A stretch of DNA of 45,496 nt, taken from the IMG/VR virus record IMGVR_UViG_3300045988_123705, positions 1 to 45,496 of that record; one strand, written 5' to 3'. Position numbers and translations under genes: made by a program. The first letter of the stretch is position 1; every line of letters starts with the position of its first letter. The notes under the pieces were generated by a model, which saw only the letters and a list, made by a program, of their open reading frames with translations, was not told the DNA's origin and did no database searches. This document shows, piece by piece, positions 5,459 to 37,978 of the stretch. Origin of the DNA: a virus.

Positions 5459-5823
5459 AAAAGATAAGAATAACTTTTAGCAAGGATACTGTACATGTTG
5501 ACGCATATAAAGTTGGCGCAAACGAAATAAAAAGTGCGATTCATGCACTACTTATTGGATTACATGATGATTTCGGAGAAAAGCCAAGTGAATTATGGAA
5601 TGTCCTGTATGACGCCTTGTGGGATTTAAAAATAAAACATGGATGGAATATTGATATACGCCCTGATAAGGAGATGGGCAAGAATAGAGTAGACGATGTT
5701 TTATGTAGTCATGCAAGGCTGTTGAACATAATAACGCATGCTAATATCAGTGCCACAGAGGGAGAGTGGAAAGAAATTTGGAGTGCTGTTAAAGAAGCGA
5801 GAGAGATGACTAAATGGGAATGA
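5455..5823 (+). CDS. Hypothetical protein (122 aa)
   Basis: ATG 5455 with GGGAGG RBS and ATGA overlap with the upstream stop. No motif. Confidence 0.5.
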   Translation: MKKIRITFSKDTVHVDAYKVGANEIKSAIHALLIGLHDDFGEKPSELWNVLYDALWDLKIKHGWNIDIRPDKEMGKNRVDDVLCSHARLLNIITHANISATEGEWKEIWSAVKEAREMTKWE

Positions 5824-7061
5824 CATTTATAGACTTCTTTGCCGGTATTGGCGGATTCCACAGCGGATTTGAAAAAGCGGGAATGAAATGTATCGGCTGG
5901 TGCGAGTTTGATAAATACGCACAAAAAAGTTATAGGGCAATTTATGATACGGAAGGATTGTGGTTTAAAGATGATGTACGAAAGGTGCGAGGATGGGAGT
6001 TACCAGGGGCTACTGTTTGGACATTCGGATTCCCATGCCAGGATGTCTCTATCGCAGGAAAGCAAAAAGGCATTAAACGAGGAACACGGAGCGGATTATT
6101 TTTTGAAATTATGCGGCTCCTTGATGAAGCAGAAGAAAATAAACCCCGATGGATTATCGCTGAAAACGTTAAAAATCTGCTTTCTATTGAGGGGGGGTGG
6201 GGATTCTTCACAGTGCTGTCTGAAATGGCAGAGAGAGGGTACAGTGTTGAATGGAGAGTGTACAACTCAAAAGATTACGGAGTACCTCAAAACAGAGAGC
6301 GAGTGTATATTGCTGGACATCTTGGAAAAACAGGTGGACGAGAATTACTACCTAAAGCCAGAAAAAGTGAAAGAGCTATTAAGCAGGTTATAGGCGGGGC
6401 ACAAGGAGAAAGAGTGTACGAGCCGAACATATCTTGTACGTTATCTTCACAAGGTGGAGGTTGCGGAGCAAAAACAGGGTTATATAGGTTTATAGACTTT
6501 TCAAAGAAAGATACACAGACAACGGAACACTCAAGATGTCTGACTGCACGTTACGATAGAGGTATATCTAATCGTGCAGGAGAATCCAGCGGGGTGATGG
6601 CAGTATTAACGCCAAATAGGACAGAAAGGAGACAAAATGGTCGAAGGGTCAAAGAACCAGGTGAACCGTCATTTACACTCACGGCACAAGACAGGCATGG
6701 AATAATGATAAAAAATGCCACAAAAAAGGGATATGAAATTGCAAGAAAGGGAGACGGCGTAGATATTGCATATCCGAATAGTGATACACGGTGCGGAAGG
6801 GTGCAGAAGCAGTTATCAAACACGGTAAAAACACAAAGTAACTTGGGGGTCGTTCTTGAAAATGAAAGTATATGTTATATACGCAAATTAACGCCGAAGG
6901 AATCCTGGAGGTTGCAAGGGTTTACAGATGAGCAATACGAAAAAGCTGCTGCCGTAAACAGTAAGAGCCAATTGTACAAGCAGGCTGGAAACGCAGTGAC
7001 GGTGAATGTAACTTATGAGATAGGGAAACATATCGTAGGTTTCGAGAAGGAGGAAACATGA
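5814..7061 (+). CDS. dcm: DNA (cytosine-5)-methyltransferase
   Basis: Motif I FIDFFAGIGG, motif IV FGFPCQDVS, motif VI ENVKNL, motif VIII QNRERVYI, motif X QAGNAVTVNV. Start may be ATG 5820 (ATGA coupling). Confidence 0.95.
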   Translation: MGMTFIDFFAGIGGFHSGFEKAGMKCIGWCEFDKYAQKSYRAIYDTEGLWFKDDVRKVRGWELPGATVWTFGFPCQDVSIAGKQKGIKRGTRSGLFFEIMRLLDEAEENKPRWIIAENVKNLLSIEGGWGFFTVLSEMAERGYSVEWRVYNSKDYGVPQNRERVYIAGHLGKTGGRELLPKARKSERAIKQVIGGAQGERVYEPNISCTLSSQGGGCGAKTGLYRFIDFSKKDTQTTEHSRCLTARYDRGISNRAGESSGVMAVLTPNRTERRQNGRRVKEPGEPSFTLTAQDRHGIMIKNATKKGYEIARKGDGVDIAYPNSDTRCGRVQKQLSNTVKTQSNLGVVLENESICYIRKLTPKESWRLQGFTDEQYEKAAAVNSKSQLYKQAGNAVTVNVTYEIGKHIVGFEKEET

Positions 7062-32290: not shown

Positions 32291-32485
32291 ATGAAAAGAA
32301 CATGTAAAGTAAACGGCAAAGTGTCCTATCCGCAAAATGACGGAGTTTTAACGACATTCAGCTTTCATAATCCGCAGACTGGCGAAGTCTATGCTATGTC
32401 AACAACAAGTCAAGAAGAGACCGATGAATTGAACTACGGCGATACTGTCACGCTTGAAATCAAAAAAGCCGAGGTATCCGAATGA
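32291..32485 (+). CDS. Hypothetical protein (64 aa)
   Basis: RBS AAGGAGAG. ATGA-coupled to the fibre gene. Confidence 0.45.
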   Translation: MKRTCKVNGKVSYPQNDGVLTTFSFHNPQTGEVYAMSTTSQEETDELNYGDTVTLEIKKAEVSE

Positions 32486-33762
32486 AACCACAGATATTTC
32501 AACATCCGGAAATTCGGGATGAGAACGACAACATAATACAGCCGGGGGCGTTCGGAAAAAATACGCCGTTCTGCACAAAGGGAAATGACGGTATTTTAGA
32601 CTATGTTGCGAATGATCTGGAGTATCTGTATAAAAAAAGTGCGTCGGTAGATAACGATAATCTCAAAGCAAAGTCATTAGCGGTAACGGGTATGAGTGAC
32701 CTTAACTTAGTCAATGCTGATACGGTCAAAGCAAAGTCATTAGCGGTAACGGGTACGAGTGACCTTAACTTAGTCAATGCTGATACGGTCAAAGCAAAGT
32801 CATTAGCGGTAACGGGTACGAGTGACCTTAACTTAGTCAATGCTGATACGGTCAAAGCAAAGTCATTAGCGGTAACGGGTACGAGTGACCTTAACTTAGT
32901 CAATGCTGATACGGTCAAAGCAAAGTCATTAGCGGTAACGGGTACGAGTGCGGCACCGACAGCGCCGACAGGTGACAGTTCTAAAACAATTGCGAATACA
33001 GAATTTGTGCAAAACGCAGTGTCCGGACTTGTCGGAGCCGCACCGGAAACTCTTGATACGCTTAATGAGCTGGCGACAGCACTCGGTAATGATCCGAATT
33101 TCGCAACGACGGTCTCTAATCAAATTGGCAAAAAAGCAAATCAATCGGATTTAGATGCGGTATCAACAAAAGTAGACAAAAAGGCGGAGCGGACGGACTT
33201 AGAATCCACGGCGTCATTTGTCAATCGCCTGCAACGCAAGAAAGCATATAAAGTCGGCGATATCGTTTACTCATCGAAACTTCCGTCATGGGCATATCTT
33301 GAATGCACGCAGGCGGGAATCACGGGAAATACCGAACCTAATTTGTCAACTATATCGGGGGGGGTAGAAGTTAATGACGGAAGCGTGAAGTGGACAGTTA
33401 AGACGGTAACCGCAAAAGAATATGTCGATGAAAAACTCAATAATTACGGAAAGATGGAAACAATTAATGCGACTATAGACTCACAGTACATCGAAAATTT
33501 ATCGTGTGTAAAAATAAAAAACATAGTGCATTTTTTTGTACGAATGAAAAGTGCAAAAGAAGGTCTCATTGAAATTGCATCGGGGCTACCAAAATCATTT
33601 ATAAATATTGAATTTTATGCCATTATAAACAACAGCAACGGTAAAGCTGTACGATTGACAATAAATACAGACGGTAAACTATATCTCAGTTATACGGATG
33701 AATATACTACATCGCCGGGACATGAATCTGTTGCATGTTTAGTATATTTAACAAACGATTGA
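32482..33762 (+). CDS. Tail fibre protein with 21-aa tandem shaft repeats
   Basis: KAKSLAVTGTSDLNLVNADTV x4.5, followed by the widespread fibre motif TIANTEFVQNAVSGLVGAAPETLDTLNELATALGNDPNFATT. Confidence 0.8.
   Translation: MKPQIFQHPEIRDENDNIIQPGAFGKNTPFCTKGNDGILDYVANDLEYLYKKSASVDNDNLKAKSLAVTGMSDLNLVNADTVKAKSLAVTGTSDLNLVNADTVKAKSLAVTGTSDLNLVNADTVKAKSLAVTGTSDLNLVNADTVKAKSLAVTGTSAAPTAPTGDSSKTIANTEFVQNAVSGLVGAAPETLDTLNELATALGNDPNFATTVSNQIGKKANQSDLDAVSTKVDKKAERTDLESTASFVNRLQRKKAYKVGDIVYSSKLPSWAYLECTQAGITGNTEPNLSTISGGVEVNDGSVKWTVKTVTAKEYVDEKLNNYGKMETINATIDSQYIENLSCVKIKNIVHFFVRMKSAKEGLIEIASGLPKSFINIEFYAIINNSNGKAVRLTINTDGKLYLSYTDEYTTSPGHESVACLVYLTND
32665..32949. repeat. 4.5 copies of a 63-bp tandem repeat (copies 2-4 identical, copy 1 differs at 1 nt)
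   Basis: Units start at 32665, 32728, 32791, 32854 and 32917 (partial). Confidence 0.95.
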
Positions 33763-33775
33763 AAGGAGAAAGAAT

Positions 33776-34240
33776 ATGCAGGAAATCACAGATGGTAGCG
33801 CAAAATTCAGAGTGGTGGACAGTCGGTTAAAAGCAATGATAGACGTGTTGTATCCGGTCGGCATAGTAGTAACGACAGCAACAGATGACGCGCTAAAGCC
33901 AGGTGAAGCAGATGGATTGGCAACATGGGAAGAAATTGCACAGGATAGAGTGTTACAGGGTACATCAAGTGGTGCGGGCGGAACAATAGAAGCAGGGCTG
34001 CCAAATATAACTGGATACATAGTAGGGTATGGTGGTCGAACAGGATTTGGAGGAGCAGGCGGAATGGCTTATCTATCTGATGAGCAAGAAAGGATTCCTT
34101 CAATGGGGGATATCTTTCAAGGAAATAAGTCTGCTCTAAAAGCAGTGCTTGACGCGTCAAAATCAAACAATATTTACGGAAAATCAAGCACAGTACAACC
34201 ACCAGCGTACAAAGTGCATTTTTGGAAAAAGATAAGTTAA
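33776..34240 (+). CDS. Tail fibre-associated protein (putative collar-like / second receptor-binding component)
   Basis: 154 aa after the fibre gene. LYPVGIVVTT...GLATWEEIAQDRVLQG.. resembles tail-collar type motifs. RBS AAGGAGA. Confidence 0.4.
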   Translation: MQEITDGSAKFRVVDSRLKAMIDVLYPVGIVVTTATDDALKPGEADGLATWEEIAQDRVLQGTSSGAGGTIEAGLPNITGYIVGYGGRTGFGGAGGMAYLSDEQERIPSMGDIFQGNKSALKAVLDASKSNNIYGKSSTVQPPAYKVHFWKKIS

Positions 34241-34243
34241 TCA

Positions 34244-34884
34244 TGACATTCTTTCAAAAATTAAAAAGAAAAATACAAAAATACAATAAACCACCCGTTT
34301 GGTGGGGCGGTTTTGTTACCTGCATTTTCGTCTTAGACATTATAGACTTCGCCGAATATTTCTGCCGAACTTCTTTGAATCTCTTAGACAAGTGGGAATC
34401 AAAAACAGTCGTAAGCGTTGTGTTGATGTACATTCTGTCGTTTATCAACAGCTCCTACGGTGTAGTGCTCAATGCTTATTTTTGGATGATTATTATTGAC
34501 ATCAGTACACGTTGGCTGGCTATCGGTTATCAATATCTTGTAGATAAGGGGATGGATCCTGATTACTTAACAACGCGAGAGAAACTGTACGGCATTGTTC
34601 TTGCGTTCAGCGCGAAACGGCTGAAATCTAAGATTATGCTTTGGGGCTTTCTGACAAAATTCATTCTTTTTACGATTCTTATTCTTACTGCTTCACAGAT
34701 TGACACCGTTTTATCAGCGATAGAGATACCGTTGTCATGGCCGGTACGCAAATTCATGTTCGGCTATATTTGCTACAACGAGATATTGTCGATTTGTGAG
34801 AATTTGAGAGACGCAGGAAATCAGCACATCGACAAGTTGATAACGCTGTTTGATAATAATATTTTTGCAAAACTCAAGAAATAA
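34244..34884 (+). CDS. Holin, Phage_holin_4_1 (TcdE-like) family with N-terminal extension
   Basis: Multiple TM segments. SAKRLKSK...G...K block and C-terminal YNEILSICENLRDAG match the family signature. Lies upstream of the endolysin. Start uncertain (TTG 34222 / ATG 34244). Confidence 0.65.
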
Positions 34885-34898
34885 ACATCAAGAGGAGT

Positions 34899-35474
34899 AT
34901 GAAAATGGAAATCGACCTGAACGAATTACAGTTGATGGCAGAGAGTGCAAGAGATAATCTCAAGGCTACTGCCGCAAGTGTAGGGAGAAAGCTAAAAATA
35001 TATCTACACTGGACAGCAGGAAGGCATTATACGACTTTTGATGACTACCACATCTGCATTGACGGTGATGGGGCATTAATTCAGATGAATGATTTTGAGG
35101 AAGTTTTATCTGCCACATATCACCGCAATACTGGTTCGGTAGCAATCGCCCTTTGTTGTTGTGCTGACGCTGTGGCTTATGCTGATGGAACATATGACCT
35201 TGGTGAATATCCACCTACCACACAGCAGATAGAATCAATGGCACAATGCGTAGCTACACTGTGTACGGGGCTTGACATCCCGATTGACATAGAGCATGTC
35301 ATGACGCATGCCGAAGCGGCGAATAATCAGGACGGTGTTTATTGTCACGAGCCTTACGGTCCTGGAAATGGATGTGAAAGATGGGATTTGGCTGTACTTG
35401 AACAGGGTGATAATTGGATGTCCGGTGGAGATATCATTCGTGGCAAGGCAATTTTCTACCAAAACCAAATGTAA
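34899..35474 (+). CDS. N-acetylmuramoyl-L-alanine amidase endolysin (Amidase_2/PGRP fold), single domain
   Basis: IYLHWTAG...YHICIDGDG...ATYHRNTGSVAIAL...PPTTQQIESMAQCV...IEHVMTHAEA. No recognisable cell-wall-binding domain. Confidence 0.75.
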   Translation: MKMEIDLNELQLMAESARDNLKATAASVGRKLKIYLHWTAGRHYTTFDDYHICIDGDGALIQMNDFEEVLSATYHRNTGSVAIALCCCADAVAYADGTYDLGEYPPTTQQIESMAQCVATLCTGLDIPIDIEHVMTHAEAANNQDGVYCHEPYGPGNGCERWDLAVLEQGDNWMSGGDIIRGKAIFYQNQM

Positions 35475-35655
35475 TCTTATTATCCATATATTGGTTGACA
35501 TAAAATGACCGATATTTAACAATCTCGATTGTTTTAAATCGTTTTTAAGGCTTGTTTATTTTTGCTTTTGATAAATTCTCATGGATATTATGGCGGGCGT
35601 GTTCTACCCGCCTTAAACGCCAAATTTGCATATTTCAACAAGAAAAGAGGACAGA

Positions 35656-36144
35656 ATGTGTGGGAAAAGATTAAGAAGAGTGGCTATTATCACATTTTTG
35701 TTATCGGTGTTGCCGTTTTCTCAACCTTGCTTGTTTATTTCTTGTGGCGAGGAGACTACGGGATACATCACGCTGACAGTTCAGGAGTGGAACGACTTCA
35801 AAACGGACTGGACAGAGCAGATGACAGAATTAACCATGTTGAAACAGAACTTGAGCATGCTGACGCTGAACTCGACCGAGCAACAGGAACAAGTAGAGAA
35901 ATTACTCAAGAAGTGCAACAGCTTAGAGATGGAATTAGGGAAAATCAAGCTGTCCTTAAACAGTGCGAAGATCTCATTGACAGAAGCGAAGAAAGAAATC
36001 GCAGAGTGCAAGAAAGAATTAGAGCTATTGAAAAACGAAATCAACGAACTGAAACACAAATTGAGGGTAGCGAAAAGACAACGTGACGCATGGGCAATAG
36101 GGGTTCCCGTGGCGTTCATTGCAGGGTACTTTGTCGCAAAATAG
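35656..36144 (+). CDS. Lipoprotein-signal / heptad coiled-coil / C-terminal TM protein (unimolecular-spanin-like topology) - frame B
   Basis: MCGKRLRRVAIITFLLSVLPFSQPCLFIS-C lipobox-like signal. Perfect a/d heptads through ..KKELELLKNEINELKHKL. C-terminal AWAIGVPVAFIAGYFVAK lies beyond the stop of the overlapping frame. Confidence 0.5.
   Translation: MCGKRLRRVAIITFLLSVLPFSQPCLFISCGEETTGYITLTVQEWNDFKTDWTEQMTELTMLKQNLSMLTLNSTEQQEQVEKLLKKCNSLEMELGKIKLSLNSAKISLTEAKKEIAECKKELELLKNEINELKHKLRVAKRQRDAWAIGVPVAFIAGYFVAK
35658..36086 (+). CDS. N-terminal TM anchor plus coiled-coil protein (i-spanin-like topology) - frame A, overlapping frame B
   Basis: GTG 35658 is 6-7 nt after GAGGA. MWEKIKKSGYYHIFVIGVAVFSTLLVYFLWRGD then heptads VERLQNGLDRADDRINHVETELEHADAELDRA. 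GAA-dominated codon use like the rest of the genome. Confidence 0.4.
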   Translation: MWEKIKKSGYYHIFVIGVAVFSTLLVYFLWRGDYGIHHADSSGVERLQNGLDRADDRINHVETELEHADAELDRATGTSREITQEVQQLRDGIRENQAVLKQCEDLIDRSEERNRRVQERIRAIEKRNQRTETQIEGSEKTT

Positions 36145-36240: not shown

Positions 36241-36405
36241 AGGTGAGATGTACACCTCATTCATCTGCTGAATAAGCAGTTTAGAAAACTTAATGAATGA
36301 TTATCATGTTATCTGCCGAATAGGCAGCTTAGAAAATGTAAAGAATGATTAATCATTCCGTGAGGTGTCATTTCAGAAAGAAGCACTTGTAATGAGTGCT
36401 TTTTT
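36241..36405 (+). ncRNA. Candidate ~165-nt structured RNA with internally duplicated two-hairpin module and its own promoter and terminator
   Basis: TTGCAA-17-(TGa)TAAAAT at 36206-36234. Closing helix 36252-36259/36361-36368. Hairpins CTGCT-GAATA-AGCAG and CTGCC-GAATA-GGCAG (compensatory changes). Terminator AAGCACT-tgtaatg-AGTGCTT + T5 (36381-36405). Confidence 0.4.
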
Positions 36406-36788
36406 CATTGTATAATTCTTGTATAGAGTGCATATAGCCGTGGCGGAGGAGCTTATCACCATGGATGTCACGAGAAACAGGAAAGAAACGTAAATGATTT
36501 CCCACGTGGCAGTTCAGAAGAGTTGGAATCCGTAGGAGAGAACTACTCCTATAAAAATCCCCATCATCGACACTATATTTTGTTCATGCACTGACATATA
36601 TAGTGACGGGTTATCGATTGACAGGCCTATGACAGTAAGCAACTCATTTATCAGAGTGAGCCGAACTCATAGGCTTTTTTACTGCCAATAATACGCTTCA
36701 CTTTTGATACACATTTAATACGCTTATTTTTCTAAGCGCATTAGGAGAGGCACAAAAAAGGCACAAAAATATATTTTGAACGTTTTCA

Positions 36789-37859
36789 TCACCCAAAAAT
36801 CCGTTGGATATCACTTGCCGCCTTTTCCCTCATCTCTTCCGTGTAATGTAGATACACCTGCTCAACGGTGGTGACTGTATCACCTAATAAGCTTGCAACG
36901 GTTCTTATGTCTACACCATTTGCTAATAAATTGGTAGCATAAGTATGGCGGAAGTCGTGCGGAGAATGGTTAGGTGTTATACGAATTATTGTGTTCCGTA
37001 TTTCCGTGTAATACTTAATTCCGGTGAGCCTTCCATCCATGTATGAAAATGGACGTTGATCAAGATATATTTGCAGCGCCTTGTGTAACTTTTGCGGGAT
37101 GGGGATTTTTCTGTGACTGTTCTTTGTCTTTAACGGTTTAAATGTATATTTGCCATTATGCCCCTTTCCCCATTGTTTGTCTACTATCAATTCTTTATTG
37201 TTGAAGTCGTTTACAGTAACAGCCAGTGCCTCATTGACACGAAGACCGCAGTATTCCATCAAGCAACAGATAATCCATGATGATCTACTATGGTTGAATA
37301 ACTCTTTGTGAATAATATCTAATTCAGCTTGATTAAAAGTCCGAATCCGATTTCCATTGGTGTTTCTTTTTAAGCTTTTATATACATAATCTGTTAATAC
37401 ATTTACAGCAATCACCTTATATCTTACGGCTGCCTTGAATAGTGTTTTTAAAACAACAATACTATTCTTACATGTTTTGTATGAGTAATTTAAGGCAGAA
37501 ATGGCGTGCATACAGTCACTGTAAGTAATCTTACTCATCGGTATATCAAGCAGGGCAGGGAAACGGTTTAAAGCGTTCTTATAAGAAATATATGTGTTGT
37601 ATGCCAGTATACTTTTTTGATCTTCGAGGTAACTTTCTGAAAACTGCCGAAGAGTAACGCCCTCTTGAGATATGTCAATAGACAAAAGCCCTTTTACTTG
37701 CTTGAGTAGGGCTTCTTTTTCTTCTCCTGTTATATCTCTCTTATTCTTATATCCGGACTTTGTTTTCTGTCTCCATTGCCCAGCATTGTCTTTATACCTA
37801 AGAATAAGCTGAAAGTATCTGCCTTTTTTCCTGATAAAATAGCTGTAATTGCTTTTCAT
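36789..37859 (-). CDS. int: Tyrosine integrase
   Basis: C-terminal HDFRHTYATNLLANGVDIRTVASLLGD......VYLHY (HxxR...Y). Arm-binding type N-terminus MKSNYSYFIRKKGRYFQL. An upstream ATG 37901 is also possible. Confidence 0.92.
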   Translation of the reverse strand: MKSNYSYFIRKKGRYFQLILRYKDNAGQWRQKTKSGYKNKRDITGEEKEALLKQVKGLLSIDISQEGVTLRQFSESYLEDQKSILAYNTYISYKNALNRFPALLDIPMSKITYSDCMHAISALNYSYKTCKNSIVVLKTLFKAAVRYKVIAVNVLTDYVYKSLKRNTNGNRIRTFNQAELDIIHKELFNHSRSSWIICCLMEYCGLRVNEALAVTVNDFNNKELIVDKQWGKGHNGKYTFKPLKTKNSHRKIPIPQKLHKALQIYLDQRPFSYMDGRLTGIKYYTEIRNTIIRITPNHSPHDFRHTYATNLLANGVDIRTVASLLGDTVTTVEQVYLHYTEEMREKAASDIQRIFG

Positions 37860-37978
37860 TTTGCCCTTTCTATGGTATAATAAACATGAGGGTAAATCCA
37901 TTTCTCATTTCATTCATCTTTTATCTCCCTCACAAAAGCACTCATTCCTAATCCTTTCTAAGTGGGTGCTTTTTTATT

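Follow-up and report, generated by a model that had tools for sequence, protein, structure and literature searches.

Coextensive reading frames in the lysis cassette of Negativicute phages: a candidate spanin equivalent

In phage lambda, the lysis cassette closes, after holin and endolysin, with Rz and Rz1, the second gene lying in the +1 frame of the first. Rz, an inner-membrane protein of type II topology, extends a helical coiled-coil domain into the periplasm, where it also has a Cys; Rz1 is a Pro-rich lipoprotein of ~60 residues, fully embedded in Rz. The canonical outer-membrane spanin (o-spanin) is a lipoprotein sorted by the Lol system, disulfide-linked spanins have been described, and coiled-coil zippering has been invoked as the mechanism of spanin fusion (PMC6139136). 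The unimolecular spanin (u-spanin) gp11 of phage T1 depends on a lipobox Cys and on sorting by Lol, and its periplasmic domain is beta-rich, not a coiled coil (PMC6139136). Here, we describe a locus in which two nearly coextensive frames, A and B, accompany the holin and endolysin genes. It lies in a 45,496-nt stretch of viral DNA (IMG/VR record IMGVR_UViG_3300045988_123705), which we call the window and whose numbering is used throughout. Comparative analysis and structure prediction suggest a dual-coding gene whose two proteins form a spanin-like disruptor of the outer membrane that does without lipoprotein sorting, a reading to which we assign a probability of roughly 55%.

The likeness to Rz/Rz1 is architectural. 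The pair comprises the last genes of the cassette, the second frame is the +1 frame of the first, protein A is a predicted type II helical protein with a periplasmic Cys, and the host is diderm; homology is not demonstrable. Unlike Rz1, protein B is a heptad coiled coil of 150-163 residues with a signal peptidase I (SPase-I) type signal peptide and a C-terminal hydrophobic tail. Its gene starts before, or no more than 7 nt from, the start of A, ends past the stop of A, and shares one ribosome-binding site with it. B resembles T1 gp11 in that one protein of the lysis cassette bears a secretion signal at its N-terminus and a putative hydrophobic anchor at its C-terminus. It differs in that its lipobox is not conserved, it is helical throughout, and A is its constant partner.

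The Negativicute outer membrane is tethered by OmpM, and these bacteria have no Lol pathway. Negativicutes have an outer membrane with lipopolysaccharide, lack LolA/LolB, and may send no lipoproteins to the outer membrane (PMC5007114; bioRxiv 10.1101/2021.05.31.446380). Since the canonical o-spanin is Lol-sorted, it could not work in such hosts. A comparative study of Negativicute prophages noted the two-membrane problem and named no outer-membrane-disrupting gene. In the literature that we searched, no paper ties spanins to phages of Negativicutes, Veillonella or Dialister, and the pair is undescribed there.

Two reading frames under selection

Both frames begin behind a single ribosome-binding site, GAGGA (35647-35651, plus strand), which can be read directly from the sequence and serves both starts. 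The starts overlap as ATGTG (35656-35660, plus strand). The ATG opens frame B, with 162 codons (35656-36144, plus strand; stop TAG at 36142-36144), and 2 nt further the GTG opens frame A, with 142 codons (35658-36086, plus strand; stop TGA at 36084-36086). Relative to A, B is the +1 frame, and 142 codons of DNA are common to both. A preliminary description of the window, made from its sequence alone, had reported this arrangement and its phase relation, the same as that of lambda Rz1 within Rz; all its coordinates were confirmed.

The comparison set consisted of the DNA of 42 related loci (denoted below by L numbers), 23 of which were tabulated, in about 15 deep lineages and with DNA identity down to about 45%. 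Each relative has a single GGAGG-type site 4-9 nt upstream of the paired start codons. Most lineages share the 2-nt ATGTG arrangement, as a result of which residue 2 of B is always W or C there. Other loci have NTGAATG, ATGAGTG or ATGTTAAATG, with the A start 4-7 nt ahead of the B start. The two starts are thus always near enough for one common ribosome-binding site, which suggests that the ratio of the two products is fixed by the start codons. The +1 relation of B to A holds at all loci, and B extends past A, hence it is not embedded. The overlap spans 127-151 codons, and in the 2-nt arrangement it takes in 100% of A.

A and B are both open in every fetched locus that covers the gene, with 129-151 residues for A and 150-163 residues for B, and the third frame holds 11-20 stops. 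These lineages differ by up to about 55% in DNA, and their A proteins fall to about 15-25% identity. Homologs with one frame broken by stops, which the preliminary description had named as a sign of single coding, did not occur among the related loci covering the gene. Homologues of both proteins were found by separate searches for each frame; gene callers had chosen B in some contigs and A in others. Furthermore, all eight distant members of the A family with fetchable DNA also carry the B frame.

The preliminary description had raised the alternative that only one frame is real; this would be frame B, with A a shadow kept open by the amino-acid and codon composition of B. B is indeed more conserved than A at every level of divergence, with identities to the window of 78/49/36% as compared to 66/42/27%. 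Moreover, purine-rich coiled-coil DNA is able to keep shadow frames open, and an antisense frame is open in some of the lineages. Randomisation of synonymous codons speaks against this alternative. When the B protein of the window is kept constant and codons are drawn at background usage, A should contain 12 stops (P<0.0002), and B should contain six when the A protein is kept constant (P=0.0004). Lineage by lineage, also with background codon usage, 5-13.5 stops are expected in A when B is fixed (P of an open frame <=0.002) and 3-12 stops in B when A is fixed (P <=0.022). Permuting B's own codons within the gene leaves A open with a probability of 0.0000-0.03 in 22 of the 23 loci and 0.16 in L003. 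Selection on both frames is also evident from an OLGenie-style count in four clades of 84-96% identity, in which dNN (0.068) < dNS (0.136) < dSN (0.242) < dSS (0.43). The resulting ratio of nonsynonymous to synonymous change (dN/dS) is about 0.50 for frame A (dNN/dNS; bootstrap confidence interval 0.35-0.70) and about 0.28 for frame B (dNN/dSN; confidence interval 0.20-0.39). The estimate for A is conservative, because NS sites are second codon positions of B, which selection on B alone would slow relative to NN sites and not speed up; the interval lies below 1 in a test biased against detecting selection on A.

The B-only tail past the A stop serves as an internal control for the overlap. For codon positions 1/2/3 of B, the overlap shows 0.107/0.105/0.154 differences per site in clade G1 and 0.084/0.122/0.156 in clade G2. 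The corresponding values for the tail are 0.078/0.078/0.333 (G1) and 0.032/0.032/0.227 (G2). Wobble variation of B is halved solely where A overlaps and relaxes exactly beyond the A stop. This is the suppressed synonymous-site variation that had been predicted for dual coding, seen in the overlap and lost in the tail. In addition, the start codon, basic N-terminus and strong predicted transmembrane helix of A are kept in all lineages, and neither the antisense nor the third frame is conserved. The antisense open reading frame (35781-36119, minus strand), which the preliminary description had noted as an open minus-strand shadow, is indeed no gene, because 3-5 stops break it in L004, L026, L008 and other divergent lineages. 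The codon usage of A is nearer to the genomic background than that of B in 19 of 20 loci. It gives a mere hint as to which frame is older, because the wobble position of each frame is the constrained position of the other. We consider it very improbable that B alone is real, and reject this alternative. A programmed frameshift, fusing an N-terminal portion from one frame with a C-terminal portion from the other into a single product, would agree with coextensive frames of which only B runs on past the A stop. The preliminary description had considered such a fusion of the A N-half to the B C-half. Yet each frame has its own conserved start codon and its own N-terminal hydrophobic segment, and each half of each frame is independently open (sum of log10 P of -26 to -41 across 15 lineages). 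The independently open halves therefore rule out a frameshift fusion, to which we give the lowest probability of all alternatives; no search aimed at a conserved slippery site was made.

Comparison of the frames thus makes it very probable that the locus is a genuine dual-coding gene, a possibility raised in the preliminary description, with purifying selection on both frames in all lineages. Two proteins encoded by one stretch of DNA in different frames, one of them with a lysis function, are known from the D/E and A/B/K overlaps of phiX174. Unlike there, the overlap described here is near-total, lies in a 45-kb tailed prophage, and encodes equal-length, membrane-targeted coiled coils with starts 2 nt apart, of which A diverges down to about 15-25% identity. 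The locus shows complete dual coding in an unusually clean natural form, with two selected frames, each specifying a heptad coiled coil whose ends target membranes, and it could be used as a benchmark for the detection of overlapping genes. It also holds a warning for annotation. The A family (29 of 60 members) matches phrog_18860 and the B family (16 of 34 members) matches phrog_6631, both PHROG families without a function, which means that each of the two frames already figures as a gene in one phage annotation or another. Gene callers choose either frame at random, and the outcome is two unrelated-looking hypothetical families. In the searched literature, nothing links phrog_18860 with phrog_6631 or notes two frames of one locus.

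Predicted architecture of proteins A and B

Protein A has a basic, KK-rich N-terminus and a predicted transmembrane helix at residues 13-30 (35694-35747, plus strand; Kyte-Doolittle 15-residue mean 2.5), followed by the motif WRGDYG. This motif is conserved, and the DNA encoding it also encodes SYGEETTG of B. With the basic N-terminus, the predicted topology is N-in/C-out. The ectodomain, residues 42-141 (35781-36080, plus strand), is modelled by AlphaFold2 as a single helix in one heptad register, with a Cys at residue 103 (35964-35966). The model consists of helices 3-32 and 42-141, with a predicted local distance difference test score (pLDDT) of 80, reaching up to 96. The heptads of A run in one unbroken register for ~100 residues, with an a/d contrast of z = 8.1 and a period-3.5 power exceeded by 0 shuffles. 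The ectodomain is acidic (mean net charge -6.8, about -7), and it carries a Cys, predicted to be periplasmic, in 19 of the 23 loci. An exhaustive profile search (E<=1e-3) retrieved 208 representatives of 50% clusters, nearly all of 120-150 residues and matched end to end. These features, an N-terminal transmembrane domain and a helical or coiled-coil periplasmic domain, correspond to the predicted topology of an inner-membrane spanin (i-spanin). They agree with the KK-rich N-terminus, transmembrane segment, clean heptads and i-spanin topology ascribed to frame A in the preliminary description, with the hydrophobic stretch now placed at residues 13-30.

Protein B starts with a predicted signal peptide, residues 1-31 (35656-35748, plus strand), made up of the n-region KRLRR, an h-region, and small residues at positions -3 and -1 of the predicted cleavage site ISCG|EETT. 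SPase-I-type sites end the signal peptide in all lineages, for example SYG|EE, LQA|EE, SVA|EG, GYA|SD and others. This suggests that B is exported through Sec and that its signal peptide is cleaved. The FISC of the window is a non-canonical lipobox. Its Cys is replaced by Tyr in relatives of 95-96% identity (L010-L012, P0001, P0004) and is missing in 21 of the 23 tabulated loci; a canonical lipobox at a usable position is found only in L041 (IASC). We therefore rejected B as a lipoprotein, because the lipobox Cys is not conserved and SPase-I-type sites occur instead. The basic n-region, hydrophobic core, FIS-C, heptads and tail beyond the A stop, all noted in the preliminary description, stand; the lipobox role given there to the Cys does not. 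An o-spanin is a small outer-membrane lipoprotein with a lipobox Cys, whereas B has a canonical lipobox at a usable position in only 1 of 23 loci, measures 150-163 residues, and is helical.

The coiled-coil ectodomain of B comprises residues about 42-146 (35779-36093, plus strand), and the motifs EWxxFK, NSTEQ, SLTEAKKE and LKxEI are conserved in its alignments. It is near neutral, Leu-rich and all-helical, with an unbroken heptad register from residue 47 to 145 (a/d contrast z = 6.8; period-3.5 power exceeded by 0.05% of shuffles). AlphaFold2 models B as helices 4-17, 42-72, 77-102 and 108-161, with a pLDDT of 69 and breaks at NSTE and NSAK. The ectodomain leads into a cationic collar, KRQRD, at residues 140-144 (36073-36087, plus strand), inside which the stop codon of frame A falls. 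KRQRD is invariant in all 34 aligned B proteins, with the wider form (A)KRQRDxWA, which reads AKRQRDAWA in the window. The single-coding tail follows, W146-A161 (36091-36138, plus strand; Kyte-Doolittle 15-residue mean 2.05). What lies beyond the A stop in the window is AWAIGVPVAFIAGYFVAK, which has 16 residues and is Gly/Ala-rich; hydrophobic, Gly/Ala-rich C-terminal tails of 14-17 residues are present in all lineages. The tail is marginal as a membrane span, with a 15-residue mean of about 2.0 and a 19-residue mean, estimated by hand, of about 1.3, which is below the usual transmembrane threshold. It has charges at both flanks, with positive charge at the periplasmic side. With such marginal hydrophobicity and such charges, the tail may equally be a stop-transfer anchor or a free membrane-inserting peptide. 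The B profile collects 104 homologue clusters of 155-163 residues, none of them meaningfully named.

By analogy only, B calls to mind class I viral fusion proteins and SNARE-like fusogens. Like class I fusion proteins, it has a signal peptide, long heptads, and a terminal Gly/Ala-rich hydrophobic peptide adjoining a membrane anchor. The likeness is one of sequence features, without homology, and trimeric hairpins are not in evidence.

Searches with both frames, as proposed in the preliminary description, revealed a large family for each. Besides phrog_6631, B members match only generic coiled-coil families. Matches in Pfam, NCBIfam and PADLOC were confined to generic coiled-coil families below threshold (such as SMC, JetC and tape-measure proteins), and hhalign found no match between the B profile and lambda Rz. 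INPHARED searches at the DNA and protein level, with the two frames of the window and three divergent B proteins, returned nothing. Foldseek searches with both AlphaFold2 models had no significant match in BFVD, with the PDB outside the search. Homology between A and B themselves was considered and dismissed, the hhalign result (48% probability over 47 columns) being coiled-coil noise.

Lysis context, hosts and proposed function

In the window, the pair is preceded by a holin (Phage_holin_4_1; 34222-34884, plus strand; PF05105, E = 1.3e-12) and a single-domain Amidase_2 endolysin (34899-35474, plus strand; PF01510, E = 1.6e-10; endolysin family phrog_5867, E = 1.4e-37). It is followed by a tyrosine integrase on the opposite strand (36789-37901). 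The tail tip is lambda-like, with GpJ FNIII-A, tail protein L and NlpC/P60. This is the context given in the preliminary description, including the single-domain endolysin and the placement in a lysis cassette. In all loci with enough flank, the pair accompanies lysis genes, and it does so with four endolysin types: Amidase_2 (window, L003, L036, L040, L042), GH25 (L001, L013, L038), glucosaminidase (L004, L027) and a VgrG3-like lysozyme (L037). In most cases, 2-17 nt separate it from the gene before it, and in at least ten lineages this close neighbour is either the endolysin or a small gene of the cassette. The cassette of L037, pair included, precedes the terminase, and in L041 holin and endolysin flank the pair; therefore, the association is with lysis and not with the prophage end. 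Weak XhlA-like genes were seen upstream of holin and endolysin in two Dialister invisus prophages (L001, 4605-4838; L036, 2915-3148), so that these cassettes mix Gram-positive-type lysis accessories with the dual-coding pair.

A diderm Firmicute host, for example one of the Negativicutes, had been expected from the window, and the relatives bear this out. The host genes flanking L001, L002 and L036 encode exact Dialister invisus proteins. L007 and L008 lie within Dialister metagenome-assembled genomes (MAGs), and L041, the most distant relative, lies in an uncultured Phascolarctobacterium. All confidently assigned hosts are thus Negativicutes, five times Dialister and once Phascolarctobacterium. 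We take the window itself to derive from a Dialister prophage.

We propose that one late mRNA, with one ribosome-binding site and two starts 2 nt apart, would yield two envelope proteins. A would sit in the inner membrane by its N-terminal transmembrane helix, N-in and C-out, and its acidic helix of ~100 residues (about 15 nm) would project into the periplasm, as in an i-spanin. B would be a Sec-exported, Leu-rich coiled coil of the same length as A, ending in the cationic collar and the hydrophobic tail. The two could pair along their equal-length, coextensive heptads. Once the endolysin has removed the peptidoglycan, the A-B complex would bridge, disrupt or fuse the inner and outer membranes. 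The pair would then be a spanin equivalent independent of lipoprotein sorting, which hosts without LolA/LolB lack. A parallel complex would have the transmembrane domain of A at the inner membrane and the collar and tail of B at the outer membrane; an antiparallel one would have both anchors in the inner membrane and the conserved aromatic N-terminal face of B, EWxxFKxxW, at the tip. The evidence appears to favour neither of the two.

Several observations weigh against this proposal. B is not a lipoprotein, and its route to the outer membrane is putative. Its KRQR-preceded tail may be an inner-membrane stop-transfer anchor, in which case neither protein would touch the outer membrane by itself. 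Among annotated PHROGs, those matched by several A members are nearly all 'Rz-like spanin' families, nine different ones. These matches are weak (E 1e-4 to 4e-8, the best 3.8e-8, with at most 10 of 60 members each), and could reflect shared transmembrane-plus-helix composition alone. Furthermore, hhalign found no match between the A profile and lambda Rz. In the window and in about half of the lineages, endolysin and pair are 145-240 nt apart, with a promoter-like site in between, which leaves room for independent, possibly lysogenic, expression. The host assignment leaves out eight lineages, and one relative is on a 22-kb MAG contig binned as Paludibacteraceae. Since this contig is 84% identical to a copy in Dialister UBA734, it is probably a mis-binned phage contig. 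Considered by itself, a function in outer-membrane disruption has about an even chance of being correct. We nevertheless regard the pair as the best candidate so far for the breakage of the outer membrane by such phages.

The most serious rival, although an unlikely one, is that A and B are real and act elsewhere in the envelope, as holin or lysis-timing regulators or as lysogenic-conversion or superinfection-exclusion proteins with their own promoter. The gap in the window (35475-35655, 181 nt) contains a promoter-like TTGACA-17-AACAAT (35495-35523, 10 of 12 matches). This site overlaps a 15-nt palindrome (35510-35541), and further on, at about 35594-35614, there is a GC hairpin, GGCGGG...CCCGCC. 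Six other lineages have gaps of 145-240 nt with some motifs in common (L008, L009, L028, L038, L040, L041). In L008, L009, L028 and L038, the gaps measure 145-157 nt and share motifs such as CAAATTCGCAAT, and the gap may be a conserved regulatory element. The interval between lysis cassette and integrase is also a usual site of morons in a Firmicute-type layout. It holds CRISPR-repeat-like units, and in L003 an AcrVA2-like gene, and solid homology of the pair to characterised spanins is lacking. However, promoter-like sites are no more frequent than in shuffles (4 found, 4.6 expected), PADLOC yields only generic coiled-coil matches, and the close packing of the pair behind cassette genes, along with its stay among lysis genes in L037 and L041, points to lysis. 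This rival also leaves the restriction to diderm Firmicutes unexplained. The other functional alternative, raised in the preliminary description, is that B alone is a u-spanin of the T1 gp11 type, anchored in the outer membrane by a lipoprotein N-terminus and in the inner membrane by a C-terminal transmembrane domain. FIS-C after a signal-peptide-like segment in the window, the canonical IASC of L041, and the universal hydrophobic tail of B would agree with it. It is scarcely credible given that the Cys is Tyr in close relatives and absent from 21 of the 23 loci, that Negativicutes lack LolA/LolB, and that the domain of B is a coiled coil, unlike the beta-rich domain of gp11. It would also leave the selection on frame A unexplained.

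A bolder version of the spanin-like reading, tentative and somewhat less likely than not to be correct in our view, would make the pair a new envelope-breaching class in phages of Negativicutes. In it, A would reside in the inner membrane and a secreted B would engage the outer membrane with a fusion-peptide-like tail. As the heptads of both derive from the same nucleotides, the partners would be forced to co-evolve in register. Either way, the locus is a concrete and genetically testable candidate for the outer-membrane breach in these phages. It could possibly be of use in the design of lysis tools or phage-derived antimicrobials against gut and oral Veillonellaceae.

Neighbouring elements

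The interval between lysis cassette and integrase contains two CRISPR-repeat-like units (Rfam CRISPR-DR4), at 36259-36287 and 36308-36335 of the plus strand. They are 20 nt apart and lie about 115-190 nt past the frame-B stop. The first unit, with 26 bits, shows compensatory stem changes. The second, GUUAUCUGCCGAAUAGGCAGCUUAGAAA, reaches 39.3 bits against a gathering score of 35 and looks like a type I-F repeat. The units are kept in the closest relatives (L010 and L011, 5640-5662; L012, 5640-5662 and 5688-5710), and no cas genes were noticed in the window. Possible identities are a mini-array carried by the phage and an RNA anti-CRISPR of the solitary-repeat kind. In L003, an AcrVA2-like gene and an HTH_59 gene are located directly downstream of the pair (5570-6562, minus strand). 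These genes suggest that the region after the lysis cassette is a hotspot for anti-defence genes or morons in these prophages.

Upstream of the cassette, the tail-fibre protein of the window (32482-33762, plus strand) contains five near-identical tandem copies of a ~20-residue motif, LNLVNADTVKAKSLAVTGTSD. The Dialister-type phage L004 has a reverse-transcriptase gene (RVT_1; 269-1453) near the tail-fibre region, with a few genes between it and the downstream holin; a diversity-generating retroelement may be present here. At the equivalent place, L027 has an open reading frame of the same size (1802-2986), the similarity being one of size and position only.

A stem-loop with a T-run is found at 36620-36680 of the plus strand, where Rfam gives a sub-threshold match to TEG147 (28.6 bits, gathering score 56). 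This is probably no more than an intrinsic terminator, close to where the integrase gene ends. Direct repeats at 36689-36742 and 36748-36769 adjoin the stem-loop, and may be att or arm-type sites.

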